Source: a virus (taxonomy: Duplodnaviria > Caudoviricetes). Taken from it: a stretch of 64,000 nt of DNA. Positions 715 to 62,673 of the stretch are shown piece by piece; position 1 is the stretch's first letter, and the number at the start of each line of letters is the position of its first letter. The notes below the pieces were generated by a model. The model worked only from the letters and a program-made list of their open reading frames with translations, had not been told where the DNA came from and ran no database searches. The stretch lies in the IMG/VR virus record IMGVR_UViG_3300031555_010338, one strand, 5' to 3'. Made by a program: the position numbers and the translations under genes.

Positions 715-865
715 AAGCCATACTCCTCCTTGCTTATAGTGTACACAGTCCATGTTTTCTCAAAGAAATATTTTATATATAATATAGTTGAGTTTTCGGT
801 GTTCCAATGTTAAAATAACTCTAACAATGATTTTGTAAGCTTCTATTGATTGGAGGATCTCGGAT

Positions 866-1615
866 ATGGACGCTGTTGTAACTCTGTTACTTGTTTTTGC
901 CTTCGTAATTGCTGGTTCTCTGCTTTTAATTTTTGTAAGCGGAACTTCCATAAAACGCTCTCAAAGCAAATTAGAGTCGTATAGAAAAGAAATTGATACT
1001 TTTAATACTCAACGAGAATTGCAGTACGTAAAAACAATTGAGCCAATCTTGGCACAAGCCTATCAAACTCTTTGCCAGAATTTTCAACAGCCAGATCATT
1101 TCTTAACGGTGGATATATTGAACGTAACCAGCGAAAAAGAATTACAGTTTCTTCAGCAACAGCTTCCGGAACAATGGTGCGCATGGCCTGTGACCTGCTC
1201 TTGCTGGGTCAACAGTAGCACTCTCTATATTCTTGAAACTTTTGACTCATGTGTATCAAAGGCCAAACTTTCTCCAGATTTATATGCTACTTTGGAAATG
1301 GCACAAGATCAAATTAAACATATCTCCATTCCTCTGGATGCCATCCATTATTACAAAGCAAAAGGCGACATTATTCGCTCTCAAAGAACAGCAGTCCACG
1401 AAAACACTTCTTACAGTGGAATCTCCGTTAATGGTATCAGCTTTGGAGAAGTGAAGACCACTCCTGCACTTATATTACCAAAAATCCTCGACACACGGTA
1501 TATTGTACTGTACTATCAAACACACGGCGAAGATGAATTGCAAGCATTATACTTTGGATACGATTCTTTGGATGCCCTTATCCGCATAATTCCACAACAT
1601 GAACGACATCCCTGA
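866..1615 (+). CDS. Membrane-anchored hypothetical protein
   Basis: 249-aa ORF with GGAGG RBS and N-terminal hydrophobic helix; divergent from the XRE gene. Confidence 0.75.
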   Translation: MDAVVTLLLVFAFVIAGSLLLIFVSGTSIKRSQSKLESYRKEIDTFNTQRELQYVKTIEPILAQAYQTLCQNFQQPDHFLTVDILNVTSEKELQFLQQQLPEQWCAWPVTCSCWVNSSTLYILETFDSCVSKAKLSPDLYATLEMAQDQIKHISIPLDAIHYYKAKGDIIRSQRTAVHENTSYSGISVNGISFGEVKTTPALILPKILDTRYIVLYYQTHGEDELQALYFGYDSLDALIRIIPQHERHP

Positions 1616-1744
1616 ACTTATAAAAATTGAATCTCTCATTTGCGCATAACTCTTGACGGTACCCGCATTTTTCATTACAGAACCATAAATGGCACCCCTT
1701 CTAAGTACCATGTACTCAAGAAGAGGTGCCATTATCAAGCTTGA

Positions 1745-3391
1745 TTATACCACATTCCAGTGCTTCGAAATGTACATCATGATTTCTTCTGCCGGATTTT
1801 TACCTTTTGCTTCCAGTTGTTTTATATTCTTTTTGGATGTATAGAAGAAATAATATCCATTCTTTTCGTCATCCTCAGGCTTTACACCCTTGATCGTTAG
1901 TGCTGTTCTAAGGGGGATAACCCGATTAGGTGCAAAGCTAATGTAAATATCAGCATTTTCCAGTTTCACATAATTGCTCTCATAATGGTTATCCATATAG
2001 ATAAACGCAAACTCAAAATCCAAGTTTTCCTCAGCCTTGAATTGCTCAAACAGATGAAAAATTTTCAGAACTCGATTTTGGGCACTTAAAGCACTCTGAG
2101 CCACTTCTTTAATTTGAGGATTTTCAGATCTGCAAGCTTCTTCCTGCACCTCTTTTTCCTTCTCCGCTGCCTCCAGCGTTTCCTGATTTATAAAGAAGAC
2201 ATTATCCTTTATGGCTTTTAATTCATTCTTAAATGAACGCCGAACCCCTTTGCCAATCAGTTCGCTTTCCAAATGGCGGAATTCAGTCTCACTTTTCCAA
2301 AGGGGTTTAAGCCTCGAAGAACGATCAAAAAATTGTTCTCCAATTTCCCGGCTGTCTGGATTATTCTTTAAGAAACAAATGATATCATCATCACACAGCA
2401 ATCTCAAAGGAATACCCTTTTCTTTATATCCCTCTGGGGATAATGCTGTTCTCGTAAAAATACTGCGCTCTGCTCCTAATTGTGCGCTATATTGGTCCAC
2501 CATACACTTATTATACATTTCAATGGCATTTTGAACCAACTTTACATCATACCAGATTGTCGGATTGTTCTGAATCCAATGCCGCTCCAAATCGTTGGCA
2601 AATGTAACATTTTCGATGACACTCAAAGAACCCTTTTTATAGGCCGCAACATTTCTCGAATTAGACGATGCATCGGTATACTTCACAATTGTATATCCCG
2701 CAAACAAGCGATCTACATCCAGTGCCATAGTATTAAAGCCTGTTACATATGCATCACGCAGCAAATAATCAAGCTTATCAACATCAATCAAGGATCCATT
2801 CAGCATCCCAATAATAGTATTCTCTATCAGTCTGTCGTTATTTTGATCCTTATAAGCAACTCCAATTATGGAACGCACAAACAGTTCTTCGTCAACATCA
2901 GAAATACTCTCTTCCCTTATCATGTCCAAACCGACTAATGCACTCATTGCCTCATGTGGCTTCCCAGTCCCACTCTTTTTAATATCTGAATGGAGACTGA
3001 TACTGTTAGGAAGAGTTTTTTCAAATTCGCTAACAAAATTTGTACTTTTACTGTAATATCCCTCTCCTGTATGAGAGAAAGGAGAGTGGCCAACATCGTG
3101 AAGCAAACACGCAAGAAGAAAAGACCGTTCCATCTTATTCCAGTTAACATGCGCGTACTCCGGGAACTTCGCCTTCTCAACATTTTCTTTAAAACAAGTA
3201 AATGCTTTTATTCCCAGATGAAAAACGCCAATTGAGTGGACAAACCTATTATGCAACGCAGACGGATATAACGCCTGGTATCCAGTCTGCCTAATATTTC
3301 TCAATCTCTGAAATTCCGCAGTATCAATCAAAGGAAGAAATATTTCATCAATGTCAATGTATCCATAAAGAGGATCCTTAAATTGCTTCAC
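1745..3391 (-). CDS. HD-domain phosphohydrolase (dNTP triphosphohydrolase/SAMHD1-like)
   Basis: FKDPLYG, FQRLRNIRQ, HNRFVHSIG, LLHDVGHSPFSH, DVDKLDYLLRD motifs. Confidence 0.9.
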   Translation of the reverse strand: MKQFKDPLYGYIDIDEIFLPLIDTAEFQRLRNIRQTGYQALYPSALHNRFVHSIGVFHLGIKAFTCFKENVEKAKFPEYAHVNWNKMERSFLLACLLHDVGHSPFSHTGEGYYSKSTNFVSEFEKTLPNSISLHSDIKKSGTGKPHEAMSALVGLDMIREESISDVDEELFVRSIIGVAYKDQNNDRLIENTIIGMLNGSLIDVDKLDYLLRDAYVTGFNTMALDVDRLFAGYTIVKYTDASSNSRNVAAYKKGSLSVIENVTFANDLERHWIQNNPTIWYDVKLVQNAIEMYNKCMVDQYSAQLGAERSIFTRTALSPEGYKEKGIPLRLLCDDDIICFLKNNPDSREIGEQFFDRSSRLKPLWKSETEFRHLESELIGKGVRRSFKNELKAIKDNVFFINQETLEAAEKEKEVQEEACRSENPQIKEVAQSALSAQNRVLKIFHLFEQFKAEENLDFEFAFIYMDNHYESNYVKLENADIYISFAPNRVIPLRTALTIKGVKPEDDEKNGYYFFYTSKKNIKQLEAKGKNPAEEIMMYISKHWNVV

Positions 3392-3436
3392 TCAATATCC
3401 CTCCACATCTTCTATCGTAAGTTTGTAGATATTGGG

Positions 3437-3793
3437 TTACATTTGCTGACAAACAGCTTTGCTTGCAGCATCTACCAAGAATGTTAACACATTAAATGGC
3501 AGGTATCCAATAAATCGACTTTCCAAATCCGAGATTTTCTTGGTTTTAACAACACGAATCTCTTGCGCCTCTGCATCAAATTCAAAATAATCCGTGAAAT
3601 CGAACAGTGCCATTGACAATTGATCTGAGGAAGACAGAAAAATCGCATCAATACCTTTTTCAATGGATAACTTCTGAATGTAGACACCCGCACTGCTTAG
3701 TTCTTCTAAAGAAATGAACTCTTTCTTATGATTCTTTTTCATTGCTATCAAAAGATTTGCAATAATATACTCCGCCCCGACAAATGTTGCCAT
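3437..3793 (-). CDS. Hypothetical protein, operonic with HD-domain gene
   Basis: 118-aa ORF with GGAGG RBS directly upstream of the HD gene. Confidence 0.7.
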   Translation of the reverse strand: MATFVGAEYIIANLLIAMKKNHKKEFISLEELSSAGVYIQKLSIEKGIDAIFLSSSDQLSMALFDFTDYFEFDAEAQEIRVVKTKKISDLESRFIGYLPFNVLTFLVDAASKAVCQQM

Positions 3794-4033
3794 AATAAAC
3801 CTCCATTTCAAAATTACCAATCACTTAAACCTCAACCAAAATACTAAATGTGGTAATACTTAATTATATAATTGCAACACTCTCTTTGCAATAACCACAA
3901 CTCAATTTTCTATCCCTTCCTGTAGACATGCCTCAGAAGGCTATTGCCAACAGATCACATCTCTGATTCACAAGAAAAGCATCCCACAATATATTGTAGT
4001 CTTCTTTGTTTGTACACAATATATACGAAATTG

Positions 4034-4056
4034 AAATGTGGTAGAATTTGTGGTAA
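4034..4056 (+). repeat. Arm-type repeat on the other side of att core 2
   Basis: aaatgtggtagaatttgtggtaa, variant of the tandem TGTGGTA motif. Confidence 0.6.
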
Positions 4057-4093
4057 CACAAAACACCGCTTATTTTTTATCAACTTTTTTGTG

Positions 4094-4133
4094 TAAAAAC
4101 ACCGCCATTTCATCAAGAATAGCGGTGTTTTTA
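4094..4133 (-). terminator. Terminator following replacement lysS 3' end
   Basis: taaaaacaccgc...gcggtgttttta inverted repeat. Confidence 0.65.
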
Positions 4134-4146
4134 ATATTTTTAGAGA

Positions 4147-4176
4147 TTAGTTTTCCAGAGGCTTCATGGTGGGGAA
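4147..4176 (-). other. att core 2, lysS 3'-end copy
   Basis: Minus strand reads FPTMKPLEN*; shares ccag(g/a)ggcttcatggtgggga with core 1. Confidence 0.7.
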
Positions 4177-8456: not shown

Positions 8457-8691
8457 TCTTTTCTTTGAATATAAAATGGTGTGCCGTACAGTAAAATTAT
8501 AGAGCGTGTGTTCTAACTGCTTAAACCTGCCACCATGAAATCGGTTATCACGCCATCACCGACCATGCAAGCAGCGTCCGGTGTAGATTATCGGCACACA
8601 GTTTTGGGCTTTATAAAGCCACGGGAACAAACCTCCCTTCAGCGGAAGTACGAATTTCGCCTTATAGGTTACTTTGATTGACTATATCCCG

Positions 8692-8823
8692 CAGAATCCG
8701 AAGGACACGCCATTACTGTTGTTGGCGTTGTTATTGTTGGCGTTGCCGTTGCTGTTAACATTACAGAAATTCGTGGAGTTGCTGGAATTAGGAGAACGCT
8801 CCCACCAGTTATTGGCTGAACCA
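8692..8823 (-). repeat. DGR template repeat (TR)
   Basis: 132 nt with 16 AAY codons in target frame; differs from VR1 and VR2 only at sense-strand adenines. Confidence 0.95.
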
Positions 8824-8887: not shown

Positions 8888-9355
8888 TTATTCTGTTACA
8901 TGACTGATTTCATCCTCTTCATCAGAAAATCTGCTAAATCTTCTTCTATCGGCTTTCTTTACTCCAACGATCAATGTCTTTTCCTTTTGGATCAGCCTTC
9001 CCCATTCAAGCATTGCATTTGAAAGCCATTTGAATTCTATACTCCAATTTGGATTTTTCTTTACAATGTCATACATAAGTTGCAATTTATCATCCAAACT
9101 GTTAAGTAGACCAAACGCCGTGTTCAAAAGGTCACGGCGAGTTTGAAACTCGTGTTCATTTGTTGGCAAAATAGCTTCTGCCAAGCGCACATGCGTATCA
9201 ATATCTTCTGCAAGAGATGCAATTTTATTTACAACCAGATATGTGTATCGTTTTGGAAACTTCACACAGTTGCTGATTGTATAAATCTGTAATTGTCTCG
9301 CAGTTTCTACATATTGAACCGCACTTGTACCACGTTTTGATTTATAAACTGACAT
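8888..9355 (-). CDS. avd: DGR accessory variability determinant (Avd-like four-helix bundle)
   Basis: 155 aa, basic, FPKRYTY motif; located between target gene and TR. Confidence 0.8.
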   Translation of the reverse strand: MSVYKSKRGTSAVQYVETARQLQIYTISNCVKFPKRYTYLVVNKIASLAEDIDTHVRLAEAILPTNEHEFQTRRDLLNTAFGLLNSLDDKLQLMYDIVKKNPNWSIEFKWLSNAMLEWGRLIQKEKTLIVGVKKADRRRFSRFSDEEDEISHVTE

Positions 9356-9478
9356 ATTTTCTTCTCACATACTGTATGGACATACACATCTCCCCTGAAC
9401 GGGGAGCGTGTGTAGTCCCAACAAAAACACCCGCCAGCTCAAAAAGCTTAACGGGTTGTCACTCATTCGGTTATTAGG

Positions 9479-11104
9479 TTAAACACAGAAGCCGAAGGAC
9501 ACGCCATAACTGATGTCGGCGCTGTAATAGTCGGCGGAGCCGCCGCTGCTAACACAACAGAAATACGTGGAGATGCTGGAACAAGGAGAACGCTCCCACC
9601 AGGGACTGGCTGAACCAGAACCATTAGAAAGATACTTGACTCTTTTTGCAGACGTGGTAGCATAGCTGCTGTAATAATCGTACTGCTTGCCTTCACCAGC
9701 AACAGAATAAGTTGTTGAACCAAAAATCTCTACCTCAGACAGCAAGAAACAATAATCGTTCGTTGTTTCAAGTGCCGTACCAGTATTGCCGACACTCGTA
9801 ACCTTCTGTACGGGGCGAATCACAGCCTTTACATCATCTGGGAGTGTGTCATAAATCGCACCTCCTGGCTGCAGTCTTGTACGCATTGCACAGCTTGCCC
9901 ATCCGCCAACATTGGTGCTGGACGAATTCATGGTGTTGGTTGATGCCATACTATTCTTCATACAGAATGTAATTCCGGCATAGCCAGTACCATCAGCAAG
10001 TACATCGTGAGTAAATCCGATGATCTGCAATGTCACCGTCTCTCCTGTTGTCAGCTCTACATCCTTTTCGTCTCCAAGCGTATAATACATTTCAGGGCTA
10101 CCGCTCTGAGCCAACGCACTGATCGTCTCCCAGGAATCCTCTGCAAGAATATGTTTATCGCTCAAATCTGCTGTTTTTGTGTACATAAACGGTGTAACAT
10201 CAAAAGAAACCTCCGCGATAATCGCATCTTCATAATCTGTAAACTGCCCCTTCCATGTACCAGTGGTTGGGAGTGCATATGTAATAGTCTGTCCTGCCTT
10301 GGTATAAGAGCCAGTCAACACATTACTGCCACAAGTCAAAGTAAGTGTATATGGAGTAATACCTGCGGGATATGGAGCAGGCAACTTCACGGACACATAT
10401 GCAACGGCCTTTGTTCCATCACCAACACAATCAACATAAGCATTTGTTGGATACAAAATCAACCCATTATAAACCCAATATGTAGAAGAATATCGGATAT
10501 TATTTACATAATTCTGTCCTTCAGAGCATGTCTCGCTCCAATCGGTCAGTTTCCATGTATCCTCAGATTTAACATATGTACATGACACCCATCCAATAGC
10601 GGTAAATTCGCTGGACGCAGTATCATATGTCTGGATGGCGAAATCAGATGTCATAAACATAACAGACACATGGTTTGAACTTTCCAAAATTGCCATGTGA
10701 TCGTAATCACCTGTGTACATGGTCTTTGCGTGTTCAACATAAGACTCATATACTTCTGGCAAGGACGCTGTTGGTGCAATTTCAAGTGTACCAGTCACAC
10801 CGTAGATTGTAACTCCTTCAGCGATATTCTGGGGTGCAAGGTTTTTATCTCCCGCAACAATGACTCGGCTAAAACCATCATATCCATCATCTGGATACTG
10901 AATAAATGATTTACCAGTAGGCTCAATCTCTCCAAGCTGAAGCAATACATCCTCTCCAGTTCCAGTAGGAATATCACGAATCAAGTCAGCATATTCGCGG
11001 AATGTTGCATCGTCTGGCAATTCCACACCCTTGCTCACGATTGCATTACCGATCTGGGTCTTTGTCTCCAGCAAATAATTCAATTTTGTTCCAATATCGC
11101 TCAT
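9479..11104 (-). CDS. DGR target 1: tail fibre/adhesin with C-terminal DUF6273-like (C-type lectin-fold) domain
   Basis: Ends WWERSP...GVSFGFCV containing VR1; at the end of the tail gene cluster. Confidence 0.85.
   Translation of the reverse strand: MSDIGTKLNYLLETKTQIGNAIVSKGVELPDDATFREYADLIRDIPTGTGEDVLLQLGEIEPTGKSFIQYPDDGYDGFSRVIVAGDKNLAPQNIAEGVTIYGVTGTLEIAPTASLPEVYESYVEHAKTMYTGDYDHMAILESSNHVSVMFMTSDFAIQTYDTASSEFTAIGWVSCTYVKSEDTWKLTDWSETCSEGQNYVNNIRYSSTYWVYNGLILYPTNAYVDCVGDGTKAVAYVSVKLPAPYPAGITPYTLTLTCGSNVLTGSYTKAGQTITYALPTTGTWKGQFTDYEDAIIAEVSFDVTPFMYTKTADLSDKHILAEDSWETISALAQSGSPEMYYTLGDEKDVELTTGETVTLQIIGFTHDVLADGTGYAGITFCMKNSMASTNTMNSSSTNVGGWASCAMRTRLQPGGAIYDTLPDDVKAVIRPVQKVTSVGNTGTALETTNDYCFLLSEVEIFGSTTYSVAGEGKQYDYYSSYATTSAKRVKYLSNGSGSASPWWERSPCSSISTYFCCVSSGGSADYYSADISYGVSFGFCV
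9486..9617 (-). repeat. DGR variable repeat VR1
   Basis: Ungapped 132-nt match to TR with 22 mismatches, all at TR adenines. Confidence 0.95.
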
Positions 11105-42072: not shown

Positions 42073-43038
42073 TCAGTCCTCCTTAGAAAGACTGAACTCC
42101 TTATCCAGCTCCTTAGAACCGGTCAGAAGATTCTTCAAAGGTCTAAAAATAAATCTGCTTGCATATGAGCCAAGACCATCTGAGTCGTGATACAAACTTT
42201 TATCCTTGTAATACTCTGCCGGCGTATGTTTCTCAATATCAGATATCCATACACCAAGCGGATCTAACTTGACCGCATCTTCCTTTTTCTGCTTTCGATC
42301 TTCAAGCTCAGTCGTAGCAGCATTGATATACTCCTTATAAGTTTTAGCAAGAGCGCCAATACCAGTATCTCCATTCTGTACATACTTTTGGAGCTGGAGC
42401 TTCAAATAACAAATGCTTTTATAAAGCTCTTCTTGTCGCTTATCTTCTGGAATGCCATACTTTGCCGCCCAATCGTCATACTCATACTGAAGTGTTTCAT
42501 AATCCTGGTCGCTAAATCCAAGGCCAAATAGCTTAACCGTCTCAATCGGAGTGCCGATTGATGGGTTGTCTTGAACCTCTTGAATAGATGAAGCATTCTC
42601 CACCTTATTTGCCTCACGATAAAGAATTGTGTCCGCATAAGATGCGCCTTTTGTCTGAGACAAATTAAGCTTAGAGAAATAAACGCTTACCTTACTACGA
42701 TTGCTCTGCGGATGCTTCTTAGCATTCGCCCAGGCCGTCTCGTCAAAACAGGTGTTAATGGTAGCACACAAAAGCTCCATAGCCTTGTCTTGATCGCCAC
42801 CAAAAACCTCATCTCTGTAATATTCAAATGATTTATCCAAACAGCGTTTGCAAACATGAAGATAACCGCCGTTTTTCTCATAATACGGGGACGGAGATAC
42901 ATTGAAGTTGTCCTTCTGTCTCGTATATCCTTTGCCACATGCAGTACAGTGGTATGGATATTTGTCAACGCTGTCAAAAGTCAGCTTTTCAGATTTCGTC
43001 CCTTTTGCGCTACTGGTCTTTTTAACATCGCCTGCCAC
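42073..43038 (-). CDS. Zinc-finger protein upstream of terminase (small terminase candidate)
   Basis: CTACG...CKRC; start moved to GTG 43038 (AAGGAGG), avoiding overlap with tRNA-Lys. Confidence 0.6.
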   Translation of the reverse strand: MAGDVKKTSSAKGTKSEKLTFDSVDKYPYHCTACGKGYTRQKDNFNVSPSPYYEKNGGYLHVCKRCLDKSFEYYRDEVFGGDQDKAMELLCATINTCFDETAWANAKKHPQSNRSKVSVYFSKLNLSQTKGASYADTILYREANKVENASSIQEVQDNPSIGTPIETVKLFGLGFSDQDYETLQYEYDDWAAKYGIPEDKRQEELYKSICYLKLQLQKYVQNGDTGIGALAKTYKEYINAATTELEDRKQKKEDAVKLDPLGVWISDIEKHTPAEYYKDKSLYHDSDGLGSYASRFIFRPLKNLLTGSKELDKEFSLSKED

Positions 43039-43094
43039 GCTCCGTCCTCCTTTCGTTTCAAAATAAAAAAAACACACGATTTCTCGTGTGTTGC

Positions 43095-43170
43095 TGGTGC
43101 GCCTGAAGGGAGTTGAACCCCCGACCATCGGCTTAAAAGGCCGCTACTCTACCAACTGAGTTACAGGCGC
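43095..43170 (-). tRNA. tRNA-Lys(UUU)
   Basis: Cloverleaf, loop CU-UUU-AA, encoded CCA. Confidence 0.92.
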
Positions 43171-43421: not shown

Positions 43422-43514
43422 TGGCGGCGGAAGTAGGACTCGAACCCACAAGCCGCTCATCACGGCCAACAGTTTTCAAGACTGCTCCCCGCACCTACTG
43501 GGGTCAATTCCGCC
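43422..43514 (-). tRNA. tRNA-Ser(UGA)
   Basis: gcagt-CU-UGA-AA-actgt, long variable arm, G73, CCA. Confidence 0.88.
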
Positions 43515-44775: not shown

Positions 44776-44867
44776 TGGTGCCGGCAGTAGGACTCGAACC
44801 CACAACCTGCCGCTTATCTGGCGCAACGGGGTATAATTCCGCTGCTCTACCATTGAGCTATGCCGGC
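44776..44867 (-). tRNA. tRNA-Ile(UAU) with long variable arm
   Basis: Loop AU-UAU-AC; extra arm with loop CA-GAU-AA; A73, CCA. Confidence 0.75.
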
Positions 44868-47544: not shown

Positions 47545-47965
47545 TGGTGGAGTAGGCGGGAATCGAACCCGCGTCCGAAATTCCTACATGTACAAAACAT
47601 TCTTACGCAATAGTCGATAGTTTCTGCATTTACCGAATGGAAGGCTGCTTAGATGATCGACACAACAAATGCCCAGGGCGCACCGGTTTAGTGGCCTCCA
47701 CCACCTTGTTTCTTTTCACAGTGACAAGGAAAACTGCAATGCTGGCTGAATCATTATCCTCAGACGCTCACCCAACCAGAGGTGCGTCGTTTTGGTATCC
47801 GAACTGCTGTTAAGCAGCAACCCTCTCTGCCACACAAGCGGCCAGTGCAGGATGGATCATAACGAAAACTTCAGTGTTGTCATTTCATTTTTGTTTGAGC
47901 CGTAAGGAGGACTCATACCTGCGTGTTTTGCACTCTCAAAACCCCGTCGAACCCATTACTACCCC
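47545..47965 (-). ncRNA. ssrA: tmRNA
   Basis: 5' GGGGUAGUAAUGGGUUCGAC; 3' UUCGGACGCGGGUUCGAUUCCCGCCUACUCCACCA; G3-U70 pair; tag ORF ending VAA*. Confidence 0.92.
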
Positions 47966-48172: not shown

Positions 48173-48248
48173 TGGTGGAACTGATGGGGGTCGAACCCAC
48201 GACCTCCTGCTTGCAAGGCAGGCGCTCTCCCAACTGAGCTACAGCCCC
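48173..48248 (-). tRNA. tRNA-Ala(UGC)
   Basis: cctgc-CU-UGC-AA-gcagg, G3-U70. Confidence 0.93.
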
Positions 48249-48254: not shown

Positions 48255-48276
48255 TCCCGCCCCTTTCGGGGCAGGA
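48255..48276 (-). promoter_or_regulatory. GC-rich hairpin (GAAA loop) downstream of VR2, probable DGR target-recognition hairpin
   Basis: tcctgcccc-gaaa-ggggcggga, 17 nt after the stop codon. Confidence 0.6.
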
Positions 48277-48293
48277 GTTTTTAGGTTATAAGG

Positions 48294-49097
48294 TTAGCAA
48301 CAGAAGCCGAAGGACACGCCACAACTGGTGCCGGCGCCGTTAAGGTTGGCGTCGCCGCCGCTGGAAACAGAACAGAAACTCGCGGAGATGCTGGAAAGAG
48401 GAGAACGCAGAAAATTCCATCGTCGATCTCCAAAATCGTCTTCCTTGTAGTATGGGACATCTTCCTGTTTATAGAACTCATACCACTTACCCTCTCCAGG
48501 GACAGAGTAAAAACATCTACCGTATAATTCCTTCTCGCTTTTCAACCACAGTTTACAGACACTCTTGACGATTTCCTTGCTACAGTTACCAGCGCTGGTC
48601 AACTTAATAACAGGCTTAATAATCGCCTGAATATCATCAGAACACAAATTGATAATCTCATCGTTTAACCTACGATTCATATCACAGGCATCCCAACCAC
48701 CACGATTCGTGCAGTCTTGATTCATCCGCATGTCTTCTTTGTAAATATTCACCATATCCCAAGAAATGGGAGCCTTACCGGAGCCATCAGCAAGATCGTC
48801 GTGGTCAAAACCAATAATCTGCCATACAGCAACGAAGCCGTTCTTCATGTAGTCCTTCTTCTGAGCGCCAAGAGCAAATGTCTCTCGCGCCTTACCAGAA
48901 CGACCAACATCATCAATTTTATCCCACGAAAGATGGTTGAGATCCTTCATTGGAAGCGCCATAGGCGCAACAAACCCAATGTCCAGCGGCTCATGCTTCA
49001 TCTCCGAACCAAAGTCGAATGTCACGACACCATTGTTACACGAGATATTCAAAGAGCCAAACCTTCCGATATCTTTCTCACTGATACTGACCTGCAT
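48294..49097 (-). CDS. DGR target 2: stand-alone DUF6273-like (C-type lectin-fold) protein
   Basis: Paralog of target 1 C-terminal domain (QIIGF.HD.LADG.G; N.GGW..C.M; LRSP...GVSFGFC). Confidence 0.85.
   Translation of the reverse strand: MQVSISEKDIGRFGSLNISCNNGVVTFDFGSEMKHEPLDIGFVAPMALPMKDLNHLSWDKIDDVGRSGKARETFALGAQKKDYMKNGFVAVWQIIGFDHDDLADGSGKAPISWDMVNIYKEDMRMNQDCTNRGGWDACDMNRRLNDEIINLCSDDIQAIIKPVIKLTSAGNCSKEIVKSVCKLWLKSEKELYGRCFYSVPGEGKWYEFYKQEDVPYYKEDDFGDRRWNFLRSPLSSISASFCSVSSGGDANLNGAGTSCGVSFGFCC
48301..48408 (-). repeat. DGR variable repeat VR2 (remote)
   Basis: Ungapped 108-nt match to TR 8692-8799 with 22 mismatches, all at TR adenines. Confidence 0.95.
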
Positions 49098-49130
49098 TCA
49101 TTAACACTCCCTTGTGTTGTTTAGTTACTT

Positions 49131-49766
49131 CCTTGAAAAATTCAATATCTCAATCACACTCATCATTCGGCCTTCGCCGTACCTCCATTACCTTCTTCCA
49201 ATCTTCTGCCACCAGGGAGACAAGTCTGAGCTTCGGGGAGCGACCCCTAACTTCTTGCCCCAGTCCCCGCCCTAAAAGAGCCGAACCACGAGTCCTGTGC
49301 GGGATTGTTTACCCGCAAATTTCACCGTTCGTTCAGAAATTGTTACTTTTACAATAACGCACCCAATTTGCATTATAGAAAGATCATCTTCTTCTCCGTC
49401 CTACGGCTACTTTAACCGGCGACTTTCGTTATAGCCGAATTTCTTCGACATCAAGACGGAAACGCATTGCTGGCTTTACCTCCGTCATTATGGCTGCCAC
49501 ACCATAACCCCATAGGCTTATTCTTCCACCGGAAGCGTCTATTGCTGCGCCCGAAAGTTCCGTGCATTTTGTAGCGATAACTCTTAGCACCACACATTTT
49601 TGTTGGCGGTTTCCGCCTCCCCACAATACATCGCTGCATCGCAGCCGCCCAGCAATAAAAGGTATCCCTCGTAAGCCAAACGGAAATTACTGCGTGTCTC
49701 TGAGTGCTGACGCACTTTGTTCACAGAGTTAATAATAAGCATGATTCAGATATTGAATTTTCAAGG
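49131..49766 (-). ncRNA. Large structured ncRNA, ROOL-like
   Basis: ~630 nt without a credible ORF, closed by a 25-bp terminal inverted repeat, many internal hairpins, inside a phage tRNA operon; family assignment from recalled similarity, not a search. Confidence 0.7.
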
Positions 49767-49771: not shown

Positions 49772-49847
49772 TGGAGCTGGTGACAGGAATCGAACCCGCA
49801 ACCCACTGATTACAAATCAGTTGCGCTACCTGTTGCGCTACACCAGC
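49772..49847 (-). tRNA. tRNA-Thr(UGU)
   Basis: actga-UU-UGU-AA-tcagt. Confidence 0.92.
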
Positions 49848-52257: not shown

Positions 52258-55035
52258 TTAATTCTTATGACTTTGGTAATATCTGGCGTTTCGCTTAGCT
52301 CTTTTCTCCTTATCCCGCACATCTTGACAAGCGTCGCAGCGCTTCTTGTTCTTCACAATTCCATCGACCTCGAAATCCTTTCCGCAATCAATACAGCGAA
52401 TGGTCTTTTTGACAATAGGATGATAGACGGCGCAATTATTACAAAGCTTCTGCTGCGCAGTCATCGGAACAAAGCGCTCTCCGCATTTCTTACACTGGAT
52501 AGATCCATCTGGCAGATTATTCCGAAGGTTGGTCAAAACCATATCGCCAAAACACATCCAGAAAACATTTTTCCGTTTACTCTGTTTGGTGTGGAAAAGA
52601 TACTTTACGAGAACATCACATACATCCTTCATGTCGTACCCAAGAGCGGCGAATCGCTCCAAAATCATATCTCGCACATATGCAAGGTTTGTCATATCGT
52701 CATAGAAGCTGATTGCGTAACGATACTGTTTTTCGATTTCGTTATATAAGTCAACAACGTCCTGTAACATACTCACCTTCAAGGAAGGATTATTGAGCAT
52801 GTACTGATATCGAAAAACACCAATGTTCCTTGCAGAAAAGGACATACGCTTGTTTGGAACGATTGCTTCCAGACGGTTTACTGCACTGTAATTCAACCGC
52901 TGTACTCTGCCGCCATCCTTTTTCTTCGCATATACAAAGAAATGTGGGGCTTTCATGCTGGTAATTCTCGCCAGTCTTGCGTTTACATCGTCCGGACGAG
53001 TTGGCTTAAACAAAGTCTTCGCATAGTCAATACAGAAGTTGTTCTCCATACACAAGATCTTAATAGCGTCGATATCTACATCGTCGCTGTTCCAGATTTT
53101 CGTGATGTCGTTGCTGATAACACCGATATTGCCTCCAGTCCAGGCCGCACGAAGACCTTTGAATATCTCTTCATTTGTTATGGTGACAGCGCCGGCCTTT
53201 GCCATCTCATAATACAGAGGGACAATGCCTTCCATGTTTCGCTCCGCGATTTCTACCAAAAGACGATCCGCGCATACAAGGCTCTTATCTCCATCGCAGT
53301 CAAACTGCAAAATCTTTGAAATAAGATCATGACAACTCGTATAAATAGCGTTTGGAGTAAACCACTTTCTTGTCATTGGTGTAACGACATTACGCCGTAC
53401 TGCATGTTCTCTATACAAATGTGGCGAACGCAAACAATCCAGCTTCTCAATATTGCGATAAAGATAGCAAGATACCTCGCCATCAGCCAGCAAACCCTTT
53501 GGATCTCGATTACCAAGGAAAAGCCACTCGCAAAATGCGTACAAATCAGGAATTAAGAACATATACTTCGCAGACAAATCCAGCTTTGCTGCCTTTGCCT
53601 CTTGCACCAGGTTCTTTTTTATCTGTCGAAGCATTTCCTTTGTGTACGGATCAGAAAGAAGCTCTGGATAAATCTGCAAACACTCCTGAAAGGCATTTTT
53701 GTTTTTGAACTGAGAAGAAGCACCGAAAACATCAAGCATGGTTTCACGATCAGACGCGATCCTAACAATCTTGTCAACGGACTTCTCAGCAAGTGACTGC
53801 AGCTCTTCTTCCGTAATATCTGTCAGTGTCTGAAGCATCTGATAATTCAGCTTTGCGTCAGGAAGAAAGTCTTCTTCCTCATTGCACTTGCCAGCCGTGC
53901 ATCCATTTTCAAGATACATCGCAATATACTCATTCCAACTTTCGTAGTATTTGTACATCTTGAACTGGCTTTTAGTAAAAATTACCTCAATGCCCTCAGC
54001 AATGATATCATGCTCTTTCCCGTAAATATCCTTTACAACGCCATGGCTTACACTCGGATCGTTCTGATCTGCCTCTCTTATAAATCGGTCAAACGGGAAT
54101 ACCGCAAGAAGACCTTTTACCCAAGGCAAACGAACCATTGTGTTTTTGGGACAGCAGGTAGGTAGCACCATGCCGCACCCATCTGTATGTGTGATTGGGA
54201 TATCCATTTGCTTTCGCTCTGTCTGATATGTTCGGTGGTCAATAAAATCCACTGTGCCAGCAACCAATGTTTCCATATCATCGACTACGATAGACTTTTG
54301 AATATCAAAACCATCCCAAGGATCTGTTGCACTATTGCAAAGAGCAAGGTAAGCAAGATATTTATTGATGTTAATACCTCCGCGCTCATTGATGCTATCA
54401 ACTGTCAGGCCACACATCAGAGTTTTTTGATACTTCTCCCAAACCTTCTCTTTGATGAACACTGTTTTCTTTGTTCGGATCTGGCCGGCAGAAGCAGTAA
54501 AGCAAATATAACGCTCTCCGTTGTAGGTATATCCATTCAGAATCATATCTTCAATGACATCGAAGTAATATGTACGAATAACCATGAAATCGTCATACAG
54601 CTTGCCGGTTTGCATACCAAGGGTTCTTGTCAACATCGACTCAAACACAGAGATGATGTTCTTATCGATTACATACTCGCTTCTCAACTCTCTCGTCTCC
54701 CTATGTTTCTGCAACAGAGAAACAAGCTCATCCTTATACAGCTTCATCGCTGTATTTTTGCCCTTCAGCTCTTTGTTGATCTGGCGAATACGATCCTTGT
54801 CGCCTATTTCTACCTGCTCATCACGGCGAATCTTATACAGCGCACGATACTGAGACTGAGCCTTTTCGAGTGAAAGTCCGCCGTAGTGATAGCTTGATAG
54901 TATTTCCCGCTCTGCCTTCAACTTGTTCTTTTCGTTGCAGAGCTTGTTTATTTCAATCTCCAGCTTGCGCTCTTCGTCCGTATAAAACGCACTGGTATCA
55001 AAGCTGTAGATATGGATTTGCTTATCGAGACTTAT
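52258..55035 (-). CDS. YonO-like single-subunit RNA polymerase (RdRP-like fold) with C-terminal zinc fingers
   Basis: TDGCG, RLPWVKG, RSPH, QFDCDGD catalytic motif; frame stays open to ATA 55035 behind AAGGAGG. Confidence 0.88.
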   Translation of the reverse strand: MSLDKQIHIYSFDTSAFYTDEERKLEIEINKLCNEKNKLKAEREILSSYHYGGLSLEKAQSQYRALYKIRRDEQVEIGDKDRIRQINKELKGKNTAMKLYKDELVSLLQKHRETRELRSEYVIDKNIISVFESMLTRTLGMQTGKLYDDFMVIRTYYFDVIEDMILNGYTYNGERYICFTASAGQIRTKKTVFIKEKVWEKYQKTLMCGLTVDSINERGGININKYLAYLALCNSATDPWDGFDIQKSIVVDDMETLVAGTVDFIDHRTYQTERKQMDIPITHTDGCGMVLPTCCPKNTMVRLPWVKGLLAVFPFDRFIREADQNDPSVSHGVVKDIYGKEHDIIAEGIEVIFTKSQFKMYKYYESWNEYIAMYLENGCTAGKCNEEEDFLPDAKLNYQMLQTLTDITEEELQSLAEKSVDKIVRIASDRETMLDVFGASSQFKNKNAFQECLQIYPELLSDPYTKEMLRQIKKNLVQEAKAAKLDLSAKYMFLIPDLYAFCEWLFLGNRDPKGLLADGEVSCYLYRNIEKLDCLRSPHLYREHAVRRNVVTPMTRKWFTPNAIYTSCHDLISKILQFDCDGDKSLVCADRLLVEIAERNMEGIVPLYYEMAKAGAVTITNEEIFKGLRAAWTGGNIGVISNDITKIWNSDDVDIDAIKILCMENNFCIDYAKTLFKPTRPDDVNARLARITSMKAPHFFVYAKKKDGGRVQRLNYSAVNRLEAIVPNKRMSFSARNIGVFRYQYMLNNPSLKVSMLQDVVDLYNEIEKQYRYAISFYDDMTNLAYVRDMILERFAALGYDMKDVCDVLVKYLFHTKQSKRKNVFWMCFGDMVLTNLRNNLPDGSIQCKKCGERFVPMTAQQKLCNNCAVYHPIVKKTIRCIDCGKDFEVDGIVKNKKRCDACQDVRDKEKRAKRNARYYQSHKN

Positions 55036-57956: not shown

Positions 57957-58500
57957 AAGTTACGACCCATACAAATGGGTTATTTGTCCAGCCATACTTT
58001 TCTCGCTTAGCTTCTGATAATGAACCATCCCACATTTCTGCGAATGTCACCTCTGGGAGCAATGTGCCTCTCAACCAAACACCCTCACGAGCAATATCCA
58101 GCATGGAAATATCGTGAAGCTTTTCAAATCCAACGTGAGTAACTTTCAAATAAAGACGAACCGCGTCTTTTGGCATATGAACAGATGACTTCCAGGCTGT
58201 CAAATGCCAACCAGCCGGCATTGCGTCATCCGCCTTATACACATACTCTCCATCAAGCTCTGCCCAGGTTTCTTTTACACCAATAACATCTCCGATTTCA
58301 TACGGCGGCTTAATGACCTCGCCTCCGATATTCGGTGAATCTTGGATACCCGCAAACAAACCGGCTGCGGTCATCGTGCCACCTAAAATATCCTGTTTCT
58401 TCAAGGCGAATCGCATTTGAGTTTTTCTACCTTCCAGTATTCCACTCACCGCTTCGCCATTAAGCCGTATGTACTTTACTTCCCTGTCAATCATCGGCAA
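57928..58500 (-). CDS. ASCH/PUA-like domain protein
   Basis: ILEGRKTQ.R, GD...VKETW, W.SS.HMP, NPFVWVV.F. Confidence 0.7.
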   Translation of the reverse strand: MPMIDREVKYIRLNGEAVSGILEGRKTQMRFALKKQDILGGTMTAAGLFAGIQDSPNIGGEVIKPPYEIGDVIGVKETWAELDGEYVYKADDAMPAGWHLTAWKSSVHMPKDAVRLYLKVTHVGFEKLHDISMLDIAREGVWLRGTLLPEVTFAEMWDGSLSEAKREKYGWTNNPFVWVVTFERMEGFDG

Positions 58501-59242
58501 GCACTTCGATCCAAGGACGGTATGCCGGCATCGGCATCATCTTAAAAGCATTTGCATGATGAAGATTATCAATCTTGGCCTTAACTGCCTCATCGTCGCA
58601 TTTTCCAGTTCGGATGTAGGTATCAAGCGCAGCATATGTGAAGCCAAAATTATCCTCATCGGTCTTTCCGCTCAATCCATCAGACGGAACCTTATGGATA
58701 AGATCATCTGGCAGGCCAAGAACCTCGCCAATCTGAACAACCTCACCAACCGTCAACTGAGAAATCGGAGCAAATTGGCCTACACTGTCTCCAAACAAAG
58801 TGGAGTATCCAATCCAGTCCTCAGACAAATTACAGGTGTTTGCCACCCTGCCGTTGCAGCTCTGAGATACCGCAAATAAAGTTGCCATACGGATTCGCGC
58901 CGGCAGCTTTACTCTGGTTTGATGACTGGTAATAATACCAGTATTTCGCATACCACCAAGCACTTCCATAACCGCGTCTCGGATATTGATTTCAAAATGC
59001 TTAATGTTAAGGTGTTGCACAAGCGCATAGCTGGCAGAAATATCAGATTGAACGCCCTGTGGCATCAAAACACCAATCACACGATCTTTACCAAGAGCTT
59101 CTACACACAATGCGGCAACAACTGACGAATCTTTACCACCAGAAATACCGACGATTGCGTTACACGTTGCGCCATTCTTCTCAAAATAGTCTCTGATCCA
59201 TGCAACACACTCGTTTTTCACTTTCTCCGCATCAAAGCCCAT
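58487..59242 (-). CDS. nadE: NH3-dependent NAD+ synthetase
   Basis: GISGGKDS, ARIRM, N.SE..IGYST.FGD, PSDGL...TDED..G. Confidence 0.93.
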   Translation of the reverse strand: MGFDAEKVKNECVAWIRDYFEKNGATCNAIVGISGGKDSSVVAALCVEALGKDRVIGVLMPQGVQSDISASYALVQHLNIKHFEINIRDAVMEVLGGMRNTGIITSHQTRVKLPARIRMATLFAVSQSCNGRVANTCNLSEDWIGYSTLFGDSVGQFAPISQLTVGEVVQIGEVLGLPDDLIHKVPSDGLSGKTDEDNFGFTYAALDTYIRTGKCDDEAVKAKIDNLHHANAFKMMPMPAYRPWIEVLADD

Positions 59243-60735
59243 CAGAACCCTCCATTCTCAGCATGGAGACGGTTTCTGATTTCGCTCAGCGTGTATTCCT
59301 TAGTAATCGCACCATCACGGAACACAGTCTCCAGCATGTTTTCTCCGCTCACTGTTGCGGGTGTCAGCCCGTCTTCATATACGATCTGTCCGTCTGTATC
59401 GTGGTACACTCTACAAACCCCGCGCTGGCTCTTCTTGAATCTTCCAGTATCGGTCTTAGGATTTTTGAAAATCTCAAATCCCTTGCCGTTGACCTCTCCA
59501 TATGTCGCCTTAACCGCAATGCCAAACGTATCTCTGGTAAAGGGGTTAAGGATCGTTTCGTCCTTATCGTTGACTGTCTCGACGCACTGCATGGAAAAGC
59601 TGCCAACACCAAGAGAGACATTGTTGCAGGCAAATCCAGCCTCAATCAGTCTGCGGTAGATTTCAGCACAGCGATTTACGGTAATAGAATCACCGTACAA
59701 AGCCTTCACATGGGGGTCGAGAACCTTGTATCCCTTACTGTTTACGGTTCCTCCGAAAATGTCCCACAGATGAAATACAGTCTCAGTCACGATTTCAACA
59801 GGATCGCCGCTATCGCCGCGAACCAGAAGACATCCGTTATGGTTCATGATTTCATCCTTGAGCTGAGGAAGAATCTCATCAACCAAGTGCCAGTAGTCGT
59901 AGCTATCGGACACCATAGAGAAGTTGTGATTGGGATAAATCTCAGTCAGAAGTCGGCGCACGAAGGAGATCTCATCACCGTCGATGGCGTAGTTACTGCA
60001 CATCACGCTATGCTCCGTAGAGATTGCGCCGTATGCAACCGGCTCCTTAGTACAGTCGCAGTTATACATCTTTTCAAGGTACGGAATTGCGGGGACAGTT
60101 GCCGTATTGAGGAAAGACAGACAAAAACCAGCGCTGCTCTTAACGGCTGACTGCAAGCTCTCCTGACCACGGAAGGAGAAATCGCCCAGCGCACGACTGC
60201 GAGGAATATTGTCATCCACGGAAATGTCGTATGCACGATTGACGATCTCACGATACCAATAGCCAACATTGGCGGAAATCATCGGATGCCACAGCTCAGC
60301 GGACATCAAAGACTCAATGGTGTTCACCAGCCACGCAAAATCGGGGTGTGTATTGCTGATCTCGATCATAGGAACCTTGATAGGAACACGGGTTCCCTCA
60401 GGAATCGCCTTAATCTCCAAGGGCAGATACCCAAGCTTGTGCAGATCGACAATCTTACCAAGGTCATAAGTACCAACGCCAAGCGTACTGTCGAGAACTC
60501 TCTGATACTCAGCAGCGACCTCTTCACGACTACGGTTGAAGAAATACTTGTTGAAGTAGTCCACAAGATATGTCTTCAAAAACGCCTGCAAGCTGAACAT
60601 GACAAGCTTATCCTGACCGCCAATTCTGCTCATACGAGGTGTCAGATAAGACACCAGCTTTGTCAGGCCACTCGGATACTGCTCGTGGTGAGTAGTCTTG
60701 TAAAAATCCAGCAAAAGCAAAGGATTAGTTTCCAT
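59242..60735 (-). CDS. NAMPT-family phosphoribosyltransferase (Namat-like)
   Basis: DFYK..H, DFSFRG, TEHS, VSDSYD, RGDSG, YGDSI, GVGS, K.PKTD, KKS..G. Confidence 0.9.
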   Translation of the reverse strand: METNPLLLLDFYKTTHHEQYPSGLTKLVSYLTPRMSRIGGQDKLVMFSLQAFLKTYLVDYFNKYFFNRSREEVAAEYQRVLDSTLGVGTYDLGKIVDLHKLGYLPLEIKAIPEGTRVPIKVPMIEISNTHPDFAWLVNTIESLMSAELWHPMISANVGYWYREIVNRAYDISVDDNIPRSRALGDFSFRGQESLQSAVKSSAGFCLSFLNTATVPAIPYLEKMYNCDCTKEPVAYGAISTEHSVMCSNYAIDGDEISFVRRLLTEIYPNHNFSMVSDSYDYWHLVDEILPQLKDEIMNHNGCLLVRGDSGDPVEIVTETVFHLWDIFGGTVNSKGYKVLDPHVKALYGDSITVNRCAEIYRRLIEAGFACNNVSLGVGSFSMQCVETVNDKDETILNPFTRDTFGIAVKATYGEVNGKGFEIFKNPKTDTGRFKKSQRGVCRVYHDTDGQIVYEDGLTPATVSGENMLETVFRDGAITKEYTLSEIRNRLHAENGGF

Positions 60736-61528
60736 ATTTTAATTCCTCCACATCAAATACTGTAATCAGAGGGTGGTTCTTGCGGAAAATAGAGTTGGTG
60801 GTATAAATACCGGCCAAAAGTCCACTGTTGATAAGCTCCCCCTCAAGGATCGTGTTCTCGCAATGCGTTACATACAGAAACACATTCTCAACGCCCAGGC
60901 TCTTCAAAGCCCGTGCGGTATGTAAGAAAGTTCCGCCTTTACTACAAATATCATCGCAGATCAGCGCCGACTTCTTACCATTTAGGCCGTTGCCCATGAT
61001 TTCCAGCCCCTCGATTGCTCCGGTACTCCAATCACGCTTCTTTACGCCAAATGCGTATGGAATTCGGAACATGTCAGAGTAGCGCTTCATCGCACCCTCA
61101 TCTGGATACACCATAGCAATTTCAGACTGCATAATGTCATTCAGCGCCGCACTGACGAACTTATTTGGAGTAAAAACCTGAACTCTGTCGATCAGAGCAG
61201 CGGAAACGCTGGAATGAGGATCAAGTACATAGACGTTCTGGAAATGAAGGCTGTTGATAATGTCAGCAAAATACTTCAGCGTAAACACCTCATTATCCGC
61301 CTTTACACGATCCATCCTCGCATTCGGGATGTATGGCATATACAGGTTGATTGGGAAGCAACCATACTGGCGAAGATGGGACACAATATAGATCAGCGCA
61401 GGCAGCTCATGTTCGCCATCATACATCCATGTGACATTTTTAGCCTCGCCGCTAACACCGACCTTCAGCAGCGGAGTTCCATCCGGAAAATGTCTTAACT
61501 GAATTTCTTGTCCATTGACCTTAATCAT
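60725..61528 (-). CDS. Ribose-phosphate pyrophosphokinase-like protein (Adps-like)
   Basis: FPDG, PYIPNARMDR, DPHS, PDEGA, DDICSKGGT. Confidence 0.9.
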   Translation of the reverse strand: MIKVNGQEIQLRHFPDGTPLLKVGVSGEAKNVTWMYDGEHELPALIYIVSHLRQYGCFPINLYMPYIPNARMDRVKADNEVFTLKYFADIINSLHFQNVYVLDPHSSVSAALIDRVQVFTPNKFVSAALNDIMQSEIAMVYPDEGAMKRYSDMFRIPYAFGVKKRDWSTGAIEGLEIMGNGLNGKKSALICDDICSKGGTFLHTARALKSLGVENVFLYVTHCENTILEGELINSGLLAGIYTTNSIFRKNHPLITVFDVEELKYGN

Positions 61529-62066
61529 GACTTTCCTCCATATTCAGAATTTCAATCTGACAAGCCTTCATTGCATTCAGTGCATTGTTATGACTCTCAG
61601 GAGTTACACCAGCGCAGCAGGCCGCATCAACCATCACAGGGGTTTCAGGGCAAAAAGCCTTGATTACCATCGCATTGGAGATCACGCAAATATCCGTACA
61701 GACACCAACCAGCTCTACACTGTCGATAGTACCCTTCATAAACTGCTCCGTCACAAAAAGGCCAAGCTGTACAGAACCAAACGTGTACTTCTCAACGGTA
61801 AAGCATCTGTCTTTGTATGCCTCCAGCTCCGGTACAAGACGATGACCGTCAGTGCCGCGAATGCAATGCTTGACAGGGAGGTTCTTTCCCTCCTGAGTAT
61901 TCAGATAGTCTTCATTGTGAGTGTCGAAGGTAAAGATAACCATTTCGGTATTGGCAACCTTACTCACAATGCCATTTACCACGGAAGCGGCTTCCTTTGA
62001 GCCAAGCACACCATCCACGAAATCTCGCTGCATATCCACAACGACCAAAAGTTTTTTACTATCCAT
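61521..62066 (-). CDS. pncA: Nicotinamidase (isochorismatase family)
   Basis: VVDMQRDF, DTH, HC..GT.G, EK.TFG, G.CTDICV (Asp-Lys-Cys triad). Confidence 0.8.
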   Translation of the reverse strand: MDSKKLLVVVDMQRDFVDGVLGSKEAASVVNGIVSKVANTEMVIFTFDTHNEDYLNTQEGKNLPVKHCIRGTDGHRLVPELEAYKDRCFTVEKYTFGSVQLGLFVTEQFMKGTIDSVELVGVCTDICVISNAMVIKAFCPETPVMVDAACCAGVTPESHNNALNAMKACQIEILNMEESHD

Positions 62067-62079
62067 GTTCAAATTCCTC

Positions 62080-62673
62080 CTAAACATGAGTCCATATTGT
62101 TCCCTTAATGATTTTCGAGATCAGATTTGCCGAAACGCCGAATTGTTCAGCGAGTTCTTGTCTATTGCACTTCTGCCCCTTCCCTTTCGGGATATAAACG
62201 CTGCGGATATAAAGGACATCCGCCTCGCTTAGCTTTGACATACCATTACAGCTACCAGAGTAAACCCCCATCTGAGAGTAATATCCAAGCTGGTAAGGCA
62301 CATCGTAATCAATCAATTCAAGATCTACGGCGTGAAAGTAGTTCTCTCTTCTCGTACACCACTCCAGATTTGCAACATCGTTATGTTGCTTACATCCGTC
62401 CATATGGTTCACGATCTCATAGTTCGCTACATTCGGAAGATAAGTCTCCGCGACACAACGATGCACATGTACATTGATCCGTTTTCCATTGACAGAGATA
62501 CAGGCTTGCAAATATCCGCCATCTCCATAGCCGAACGAATAGATACGCTTAGTCTTAGCGTTTCGCAGTCTACCCCAGGTAGACACCTCAAATCTCCATG
62601 AATAGTCGATACCTTGATAAACTGCGCCAGTCCATTCTTCTGGAATCTGGTTTCTAATCGTTTCCTCGCTCAC
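62080..62673 (-). CDS. HNH homing endonuclease (NUMOD4-type)
   Basis: EVS..GRLRN, VHRCVAETY, VNHMDGCK.HN...NLEW. Confidence 0.85.
   Translation of the reverse strand: MSEETIRNQIPEEWTGAVYQGIDYSWRFEVSTWGRLRNAKTKRIYSFGYGDGGYLQACISVNGKRINVHVHRCVAETYLPNVANYEIVNHMDGCKQHNDVANLEWCTRRENYFHAVDLELIDYDVPYQLGYYSQMGVYSGSCNGMSKLSEADVLYIRSVYIPKGKGQKCNRQELAEQFGVSANLISKIIKGTIWTHV

Follow-up and report, generated by a model that had tools for sequence, protein, structure and literature searches.

A small open reading frame (ORF) embedded in an RNA gene island of IMG/VR virus record IMGVR_UViG_3300031555_010338, a prophage of 143,788 bp of which a 64,000-nt stretch (hereafter the window) was analysed, very probably serves the one diversity-generating retroelement (DGR) of this prophage as a true second, non-adjacent target. 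This ORF, referred to as target 2 and located on the minus strand, ends in a variable repeat (VR2) matching the template repeat (TR) of a DGR cassette encoded 39 kb away, where the TR lies together with the gene of the reverse transcriptase (RT) and with an adjacent target, target 1, bearing the repeat VR1 (Table 1). An earlier reading of the DNA made without database searches (the sequence-only reading) had proposed that one RT drives both targets, and the whole genome was indeed found to contain one RT, a single TR, three TR-like copies in all (TR, VR1 and VR2) and two DUF6273 genes.

Alignment of VR2 with the TR was ungapped over 108 nt and revealed 22 mismatches, all of which (22/22) fell at TR adenines, whereas none of the 75 non-A positions differed, exactly as the sequence-only reading had described. 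The hypergeometric probability of 22 out of 22 mismatches hitting the 33 A sites by chance is 4e-15. VR1 likewise showed 22 mismatches to the TR over 132 nt, each of them at a TR adenine. The changes from TR to VR affected the first and second positions of AAY codons, with the exception of a third-position GGA/GGC site considered below. Altogether, 26 A sites were altered in VR1 or VR2: 15 in both repeats (eight of them to the same base), four in VR1 alone and seven in VR2 alone. The two repeats differ at 18 of these 26 sites and, because an identical base was found at only eight, were written separately, which upholds the earlier proposal that VR2 had been diversified on its own. A repeat search of the window returned exactly three related copies, namely the TR, VR1 and positions 48301-48432.

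As a control, the orthologous target-2 stretch of three sister phages (L108, L109 and L110) was compared with the TR of the window. Despite flanking ROOL and tRNA-Ala genes that are 98-100% identical to those of the window, the sister orthologs displayed 28-32 non-A mismatches, indicating that VR2 of the window has been overwritten from the window TR and is more than a paralogous tail. That both target proteins carry DUF6273 is what plain paralogy with target 1, or chance resemblance with no retrohoming, would predict; yet the two target genes share only 41% identity at the protein level upstream of the VR while every non-A base matches the TR over 108 nt, and the sister orthologs are devoid of such a match. 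The A-only pattern (P ~4e-15) and the sister-phage comparison thus rule out chance or paralogy as the origin of the TR/VR2 match, an explanation to which we attach practically no probability. Retrohoming into VR2 in the past is certain.

The 3′ end of VR2 carries the sequence elements that would be expected to direct retrohoming. The 20-nt constant segment GGCGTGTCCTTCGGCTTCTG closes both VRs and reads GGC in VR1 and VR2 where the TR reads GGA. The same difference between TR (GGA) and VR (GGC) was observed in the DGR of a relative (G007) and in the distantly related DGR of another (G010), hence in three DGR lineages in all, and because of this recurrence the site looks like a marker of an initiation-of-mutagenic-homing pair (IMH/IMH*) rather than a product of random mutagenesis. 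We infer that the 3′ constant segment of VR2 forms, function included, an IMH/IMH* pair with the TR. The sequence-only reading had further noted a motif spanning the stop codon of both targets, with a relative near the TR. Both parts of this claim held: TAACCTAATAACC after VR1 and TAACCTTATAACC after VR2 are the only two matches to the motif in 64 kb and both sit at VR ends, a weak statistic given that at least two matches occurred in 14 of 100 shuffles, and the third element, TAACCTATAAG, resembles the post-VR motif and lies within the Rfam RT-2 RNA. A TAA-YC-N4-5-AAYC pattern recurs at or after the stop codon in relatives.

The GAAA hairpin reported after VR2 was also recovered, with a 9-bp stem, and it matches a published DGR target element (PMC3240598) for which the consensus is a GC-rich stem of 7-10 bp capped by a 4-nt 5′-GRNA loop and located 4-34 bp from the VR; homing is lost when the GAAA loop is replaced by CTTT (Guo et al. 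2011, PMC3240598). Across the loci of the target-2 family surveyed in IMG/VR (79 in total), the hairpin is found 17-21 nt past the stop codon with a GAAA, GGAA, GCAA, GAGA or GTAA loop and stems that covary. The layout is that of the BPP-1 DGR (Guo et al. 2011, PMC3240598), in which the IMH at the VR 3′ end is followed downstream by a GC stem with a GRNA (GAAA) loop, and whose avd-TR-RT unit is able to act in trans. BPP-1 differs in having a single, adjacent target (Mtd), and the functions assigned to the elements of the present phage are deduced from sequence alone. No U-tract was found after the VR2 hairpin on the sense strand, and the hairpin was rejected as an intrinsic terminator for that strand; it could stabilise the 3′ end of the mRNA after RNase P cleavage of tRNA-Ala. 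The region downstream of VR1 (9400-9478, minus strand) lacks a canonical GRNA-loop hairpin and presents a terminator-like imperfect hairpin with a U-tract followed by a CTCCCC/GGGGAG hairpin. VR2 with its canonical GAAA hairpin and VR1 with its terminator-like structure are a natural target pair for dissecting DGR target recognition, to which the relatives described below add natural loop and indel variants.

Target 2 is a protein of 30 kDa with an isoelectric point of 5.1, in which neither a signal peptide nor a transmembrane segment was predicted. Only residues 324-540 of target 1 are matched by it (41% identity), so that target 2 is devoid, as claimed earlier, of the N-terminal virion part of target 1. 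The AlphaFold (AF2) model of target 2 has a predicted local distance difference test (pLDDT) score of 91.9 and consists of a low-confidence N-terminal unit (residues 1-56), which is poorly conserved and of which no paralog was found elsewhere in the genome, and a C-type-lectin-like DUF6273 domain (residues 59-267), in line with the description of DUF6273 as a domain of the C-lec (C-type lectin) kind (PMC10743442). Structure comparison (VIA) of residues 59-267 yielded Z scores of 17.2 to 9qa6, 7.4 to the DGR variable protein TvpA (2y3c) and ~5 to many C-type-lectin-like domains, and the viral matches were DUF6273 and tail-fibre-like proteins. In the model, VR2 is located at the C-terminus of a C-type-lectin fold, as befits a DGR target.

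A protein search returned 327 clusters of full-length homologs of target 2 of ~260-270 residues. Among relatives, clusters at 90% identity comprised 22 to 4169 members, and the members sampled varied almost only at VR codons, which is the pattern of a DGR. Eight of the 79 contigs surveyed end within the VR, as expected of sites that are hypervariable. The sample that yielded a 42-kb contig spanning VR2 to VR1 and broken at both ends (IMG/VR 3300024272_000184; L091, L087) also yielded another contig (000103) that stops within a different version of VR2. The gene order tRNA, ROOL, target 2, hairpin, tRNA and/or tmRNA (transfer-messenger RNA) is preserved in phages of the L004 type (62% identity) and in L108, L109 and L110 (58-79%). 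Compared to L108 and L109, the target-2 gene of the window is a local hotspot of divergence, with 40-90% identity between ROOL and tRNA-Ala flanks that are 98-100% identical, and the drop affects the VR as well as the stretch around residues 100-135. In G010 and G012, two relatives with complete genomes and an RT just 34% identical to that of the window, a ROOL-adjacent VR2 is likewise present, 41-43 kb from the TR, VR1 and RT; across the same 108 nt, 12/12 of its mismatches are at A. The match between the remote gene and the cassette is thus preserved irrespective of which cassette is present in the phage. In G007, whose RT is 78% identical, a remote A-only VR was found in a 219-aa DUF6273 gene lying among tRNAs; an Rfam scan of the first 14 kb of this genome detected no ROOL near it. 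A ROOL search in G006-G009 gave no match, nor did it give any in the control genomes.

The mechanism that we propose is as follows. The TR RNA, continuing into the RT-2 RNA motif, would be reverse-transcribed by the RT with the Avd-like protein, bases being placed at random opposite adenines, and the mutagenised cDNA would replace the last 108 nt of the target-2 ORF, in trans over 39 kb, under the guidance of the 3′ constant segment common with VR1 and of the GC-stem/GAAA-loop hairpin downstream. The product would be a soluble protein made of a short N-terminal unit and of a C-type-lectin-fold DUF6273 domain displaying the variable residues. A conserved promoter of host type (sigma-A) probably drives its gene together with tRNA-Thr and ROOL on one transcript that reads through into tRNA-Ala.

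With regard to the role of target 2, the genomic surroundings of the 79 loci fall into a few kinds. In 37 of them, all at least 57% identical to the query, ROOL lies immediately upstream of the target-2 gene within tRNA arrays. In another 25, ~100 nt separate the homolog from a Pnkp-like gene downstream; L176, a 26th locus, has a contig that ends in the VR and the same upstream neighbour as these. The Pnkp-like protein (~730 residues; e.g. L114 5890-8082, with 25 more loci in L164-L193) combines AAA_33 kinase, Metallophos and RNA_lig_T4_1 domains, an RNA-repair architecture. Eight loci place the gene between a PDDEXK nuclease and a primase-helicase, and the remaining ones beside integrase, Hjc, helicase, C5-methylase or Dam genes or among unannotated genes (L158/L159). 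None of the 79 family members was located in a tail module. Conserved pairing with ROOL/tRNA/tmRNA islands and, in other clades, the Pnkp-like neighbourhood appear to be new.

That target 2 might be a partner of the RNA cage formed by ROOL, as the sequence-only reading had suggested, was assessed through the conservation of this adjacency in related phages, which was perfect in one syntenic clade (37/79 loci) and absent from the others (42/79). A functional partnership, in which target 2 would serve for instance as a hypervariable adaptor bringing cargo to the cage, would account for the constant spacing of 51-60 nt in the 37 loci, drawn from at least five lineages, and for the probable common transcript, and ROOL has no known protein partner (10.1101/2024.12.08.627333). 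On the other hand, ROOL is missing near the gene in the 42 other loci and in G007, its usual place is close to tRNA islands in any case (bioRxiv 10.1101/2024.12.08.627333), and it has remained 98-100% identical across phages whose target-2 genes have fallen to 40-90% identity, so that ROOL and target 2 show no co-variation. The adjacency is a conserved synteny of one SPbeta-like phage clade and no indication of a ROOL partnership, and we consider such a partnership improbable and the earlier suggestion unsupported.

A stronger contender is that target 2 is a virion component, that is, a second receptor-binding protein or adhesin, or a decoration protein, joined to the particle by its 56 N-terminal residues, with its gene lying apart from the tail module. 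The same DUF6273 domain terminates target 1 and many phage proteins annotated as tail-fibre or receptor-binding-like, small DUF6273 targets of published two-target phage DGRs are read as receptor-binding proteins (PMC10743442, PMC11792537, 10.1101/2024.10.15.618418), and the RNA island is just upstream of the TerL/portal module. Speaking against it are the absence of all 79 family loci from tail modules, an N-terminal unit that is poorly conserved and without genomic paralog, and a host sigma-A-type promoter in a phage endowed with a YonO-like RNA polymerase, the last point depending on expression timing as known from SPbeta. We regard a virion role as a serious possibility that nonetheless falls short of even odds. 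Our best guess, placed ahead of it and itself offered tentatively, is that target 2 acts as a non-virion hypervariable binder in phage-host conflict. The lack of a signal peptide or transmembrane segment and the non-structural context in 79/79 loci make an intracellular binder, possibly directed against host defences, plausible, an idea for which a precedent has been published.

One specific form of this non-virion role is that the stand-alone DUF6273 proteins of ~260-270 residues are DGR-diversified intracellular binders engaged in RNA-level conflict, for example as hypervariable inhibitors of host nucleases that target tRNAs. Although we hold this to be rather unlikely, it would explain why the gene lies beside tRNA/tmRNA/ROOL islands or upstream of a Pnkp-like RNA-repair enzyme in independent clades, why a cassette 40 kb away has been kept matched after exchange of the RT and TR type, and why the second target of Quimbyvirus is found beside a tRNA ligase. 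The usual interpretation of phage DGRs is that of tropism switches that operate on tail fibres. Here, besides the tail-fibre gene of the phage (target 1), the retroelement rewrites a small soluble protein of lectin fold, whose gene lies, and is probably transcribed, together with tRNAs and ROOL. The protein is a member of a large family that shows hypervariability in metagenomes from gut and rumen and of which no gene was located among virion genes in the loci surveyed. If target 2 does act inside the cell, DGRs would equip phages with binders that form an adaptive repertoire directed at variable host factors, beyond surface receptors.

Several observations weigh against target 2 being a currently diversified, non-virion binder. 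At least 10 samples contributed the 12-16 contigs on which the exact target-2 protein was found, and this protein is the one member of its 90% cluster; no population variation was thus seen at VR2 of the window phage among these contigs while VR1 varies, closely related contigs carrying four VR variants of target 1 with differences at TR-A-coded positions. Because target 2 is invariant where target 1 is not, VR2 is at most a candidate for current activity. The pairing of TR and VR2 can, moreover, be lost: the L108/L116 sister phage has a TR identical to that of the window (L116 8286-8417) and a target-2 gene (L108 5001-5804) with an unmatched VR of another type (28 non-A mismatches), a TTTC hairpin loop and a cluster reduced to a single variant, and this gene appears to be an orphaned remote-target allele. 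As to function, gene neighbourhood is weak evidence, and the 79 loci collapse into a few syntenic clades and so amount to few independent observations.

The sequence-only reading had made its case depend on VR2 not being invariant across relatives, and the outcome was divided. VR2 of the window phage is identical on all of its contigs, whereas the orthologous remote VRs of relatives are highly variable at TR-A-coded codons; ongoing diversification is therefore seen in the latter (22 to 4169 variants per cluster) and not in the former. In the window strain, VR2 might accordingly be a frozen relic, written once from the TR and since then either no longer a substrate or fixed by selection. The single protein variant on 12-16 contigs, against several for VR1, fits this idea, as do inactive-looking alleles in relatives, among them the orphaned allele of L108 and that of the L004 type. 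The latter has a VR2 (L004 6690-6816) longer by 9 nt than VR1 of its own contig and a TTGT hairpin loop, and its exact protein is unchanged on 16 contigs, although the 269-aa members of its cluster are hypervariable. The cognate TR of the L004-type relative was not found; the TRs of L093, L100 and L101 are related but non-cognate, the L004 VR2 being longer by 9 nt than these as well, and indels opposite AAC repeats are known in DGRs (PMC5758913). Countering the idea of a relic, VR2 of the window shows no drift at non-A sites (0/75), its IMH-like segment is identical to that of VR1, its GAAA-loop hairpin is intact, and the invariant contigs may all come from one strain or study. Since no such drift has occurred and both the IMH-like segment and the hairpin are whole, competence of VR2 for retrohoming looks intact, and we view a frozen relic as possible but well on the unlikely side.

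Remote second targets of DGRs are a kind already known, non-adjacent phage targets having been published, including non-structural ones. Wu et al. (2018, NAR, PMC5758913) described many phage-associated DGRs that combine an adjacent target with a second, non-adjacent one no farther than 50 kb away, and these resemble the present system in their target-avd-TR-RT cassette, in a second VR with only A-to-N differences, in the location of the VR at the C-terminus of a C-lec-type protein, and in the presence of IMH/IMH* and of a GC inverted repeat. The present target family and its setting, a stand-alone 267-aa protein in a tRNA/ROOL/tmRNA island, were not characterised in that survey. In Quimbyvirus, a Bacteroides phage (Benler et al. 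2021, Microbiome, PMC8008677), two C-lec targets likewise occur, one by the tail genes and the other far from the structural module in a defence-related island, beside methyltransferases and a tRNA ligase, and a non-structural role in phage-host conflict was inferred for the latter. The relatives of target 2 that lie directly upstream of the Pnkp-like kinase/phosphatase/RNA-ligase gene or by methylases recall this arrangement in their setting. Quimbyvirus differs from the present phage in its family and host phylum and in its frameshifted RT, and no ROOL, tRNA-array or tmRNA context was described for it. Two-target DUF6273 DGRs have also been reported in Faecalibacterium and gut phages (Baykov 2023, PMC10743442; PMC11792537; Egorov preprint, 10.1101/2024.10.15.618418). 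As here, a single TR serves one large and one small DUF6273/C-lec target; Toutatisvirus has its second VR within a core gene of unknown function, at a distance of 17.5 kb from the TR. Those targets were, however, read as receptor-binding proteins, whereas the distance is 39 kb and the setting an RNA-gene island in the present case.

Table 1. Features of the DGR and of the RNA island in the 64,000-nt window.
Feature	Position	Strand	Support
VR2, last 36 codons of the target-2 ORF	48301..48408	-	A-only mismatches to TR 8692-8799
Target 2 ORF, 267 aa, stand-alone DUF6273 / C-type-lectin fold	48294..49097	-	Pfam PF19789, E=1.4e-7
IMH-like 3′ constant segment of VR2, GGCGTGTCCTTCGGCTTCTG	48301..48320	-	20 nt, identical in VR1
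Post-VR motif TAACCTTATAACC, spans stop codon	48284..48296	-	Counterpart TAACCTAATAACC at 9469-9481 after VR1
GC-rich hairpin, 9-bp stem (one G-T pair), GAAA loop	48255..48276	-	Fold; 24 nt after VR end, 17 nt after stop codon
Shine-Dalgarno-like AAGGGAG, 9 nt before target-2 ATG	49107..49113	-	Read from sequence
ROOL RNA, 51 nt upstream of target 2	49149..49752	-	Rfam RF03087, 384 bits vs gathering score 99.1, model positions 1-574 (full length)
tRNA-Thr(TGT), between promoter and ROOL	49772..49847	-	ARAGORN + Rfam
Sigma-A-type promoter-like site, TTGACA-17-TGgTATAGT (TG-extended TATAGT)	49909-49881	-	11/12 consensus positions
tRNA-Ala(TGC), 6 nt downstream of hairpin	48173..48248	-	ARAGORN + Rfam
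Phage tmRNA, farther downstream in RNA island	47545..47965	-	Rfam RF00023, 97.8 bits
Target 1, 541 aa, VR1 at 9486-9617	9479..11104	-	DUF6273, E=1.8e-15 (C-terminal); 22 A-only mismatches
Avd-like accessory gene, 155 aa, between target 1 and TR	8888..9355	-	Weak PHROG match
TR, sole template repeat of the genome	8692..8823	-	39 of 132 nt are A, most of them within AAY codons
RT-2 RNA motif, fills TR-to-RT spacer	8459..8686	-	Rfam RF03077, 156 bits; holds TAACCTATAAG at 8661-8671
DGR reverse transcriptase, sole RT of the genome	7302..8456	-	RVT_1, E=8.9e-12; LGSQVSQ and YMDD in translation

Within the cassette, the Avd-like ORF had no match in Pfam and a weak one to the PHROG family 'Avd protein of DGR' (E=8.8e-4). 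The RT-2 RNA motif, which also adjoins the TR in locus L093 (8288-8537), may serve this DGR lineage as its spacer or priming RNA. Followed along the minus strand, the window runs from a YonO-like RNA polymerase gene (52258-54921) through an SbcD-like exonuclease, HU, tRNA-Met and the promoter-like site to tRNA-Thr, ROOL, the 51-nt gap containing AAGGGAG, target 2, the hairpin, tRNA-Ala, tRNA-Ile and the tmRNA, followed by more than 20 tRNAs with FolD, a YonG-like gene, TerL, portal, head and tail genes, target 1, the remainder of the DGR cassette and an endolysin. The sequence-only reading had placed target 2 directly downstream of a ROOL-like RNA and under a sigma-A promoter. The ROOL is real and abuts target 2 across the 51-nt gap, and the promoter is conserved, its hexamers being invariant in five lineages in which the spacer varies; the promoter, however, sits before tRNA-Thr and ROOL, ~780 nt before target 2, where it is the sole consensus-grade site, and no promoter was found at the scan threshold in the gap between ROOL and target 2.

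The YonO-like single-subunit RNA polymerase (PF05183) and a YonG_N-like protein (42073-43128, minus strand), together with YonK in relatives, identify the ~144-kb prophage as SPbeta-like. A search of INPHARED phage genomes returned no close relative of the target-2 region, only tRNA matches and three weak protein matches. An NAD salvage operon of four genes (58487-62087, minus strand; Pfam), located 10 kb upstream of the RNA island, encodes an NAD synthase and NAMPT-like, Prs-like and isochorismatase/PncA-like proteins, and resembles the NAD-reconstitution counter-defence cargo of phages. The prophage carries 27 tRNAs besides one tmRNA and ROOL. Two of the tRNA calls are unusually long, a 92-nt tRNA-Ile(TAT) (44776-44867, minus strand) and a 93-nt tRNA-Ser(TGA) (43422-43514, minus strand), the latter of which Rfam scores as tRNA-Sec just over threshold.

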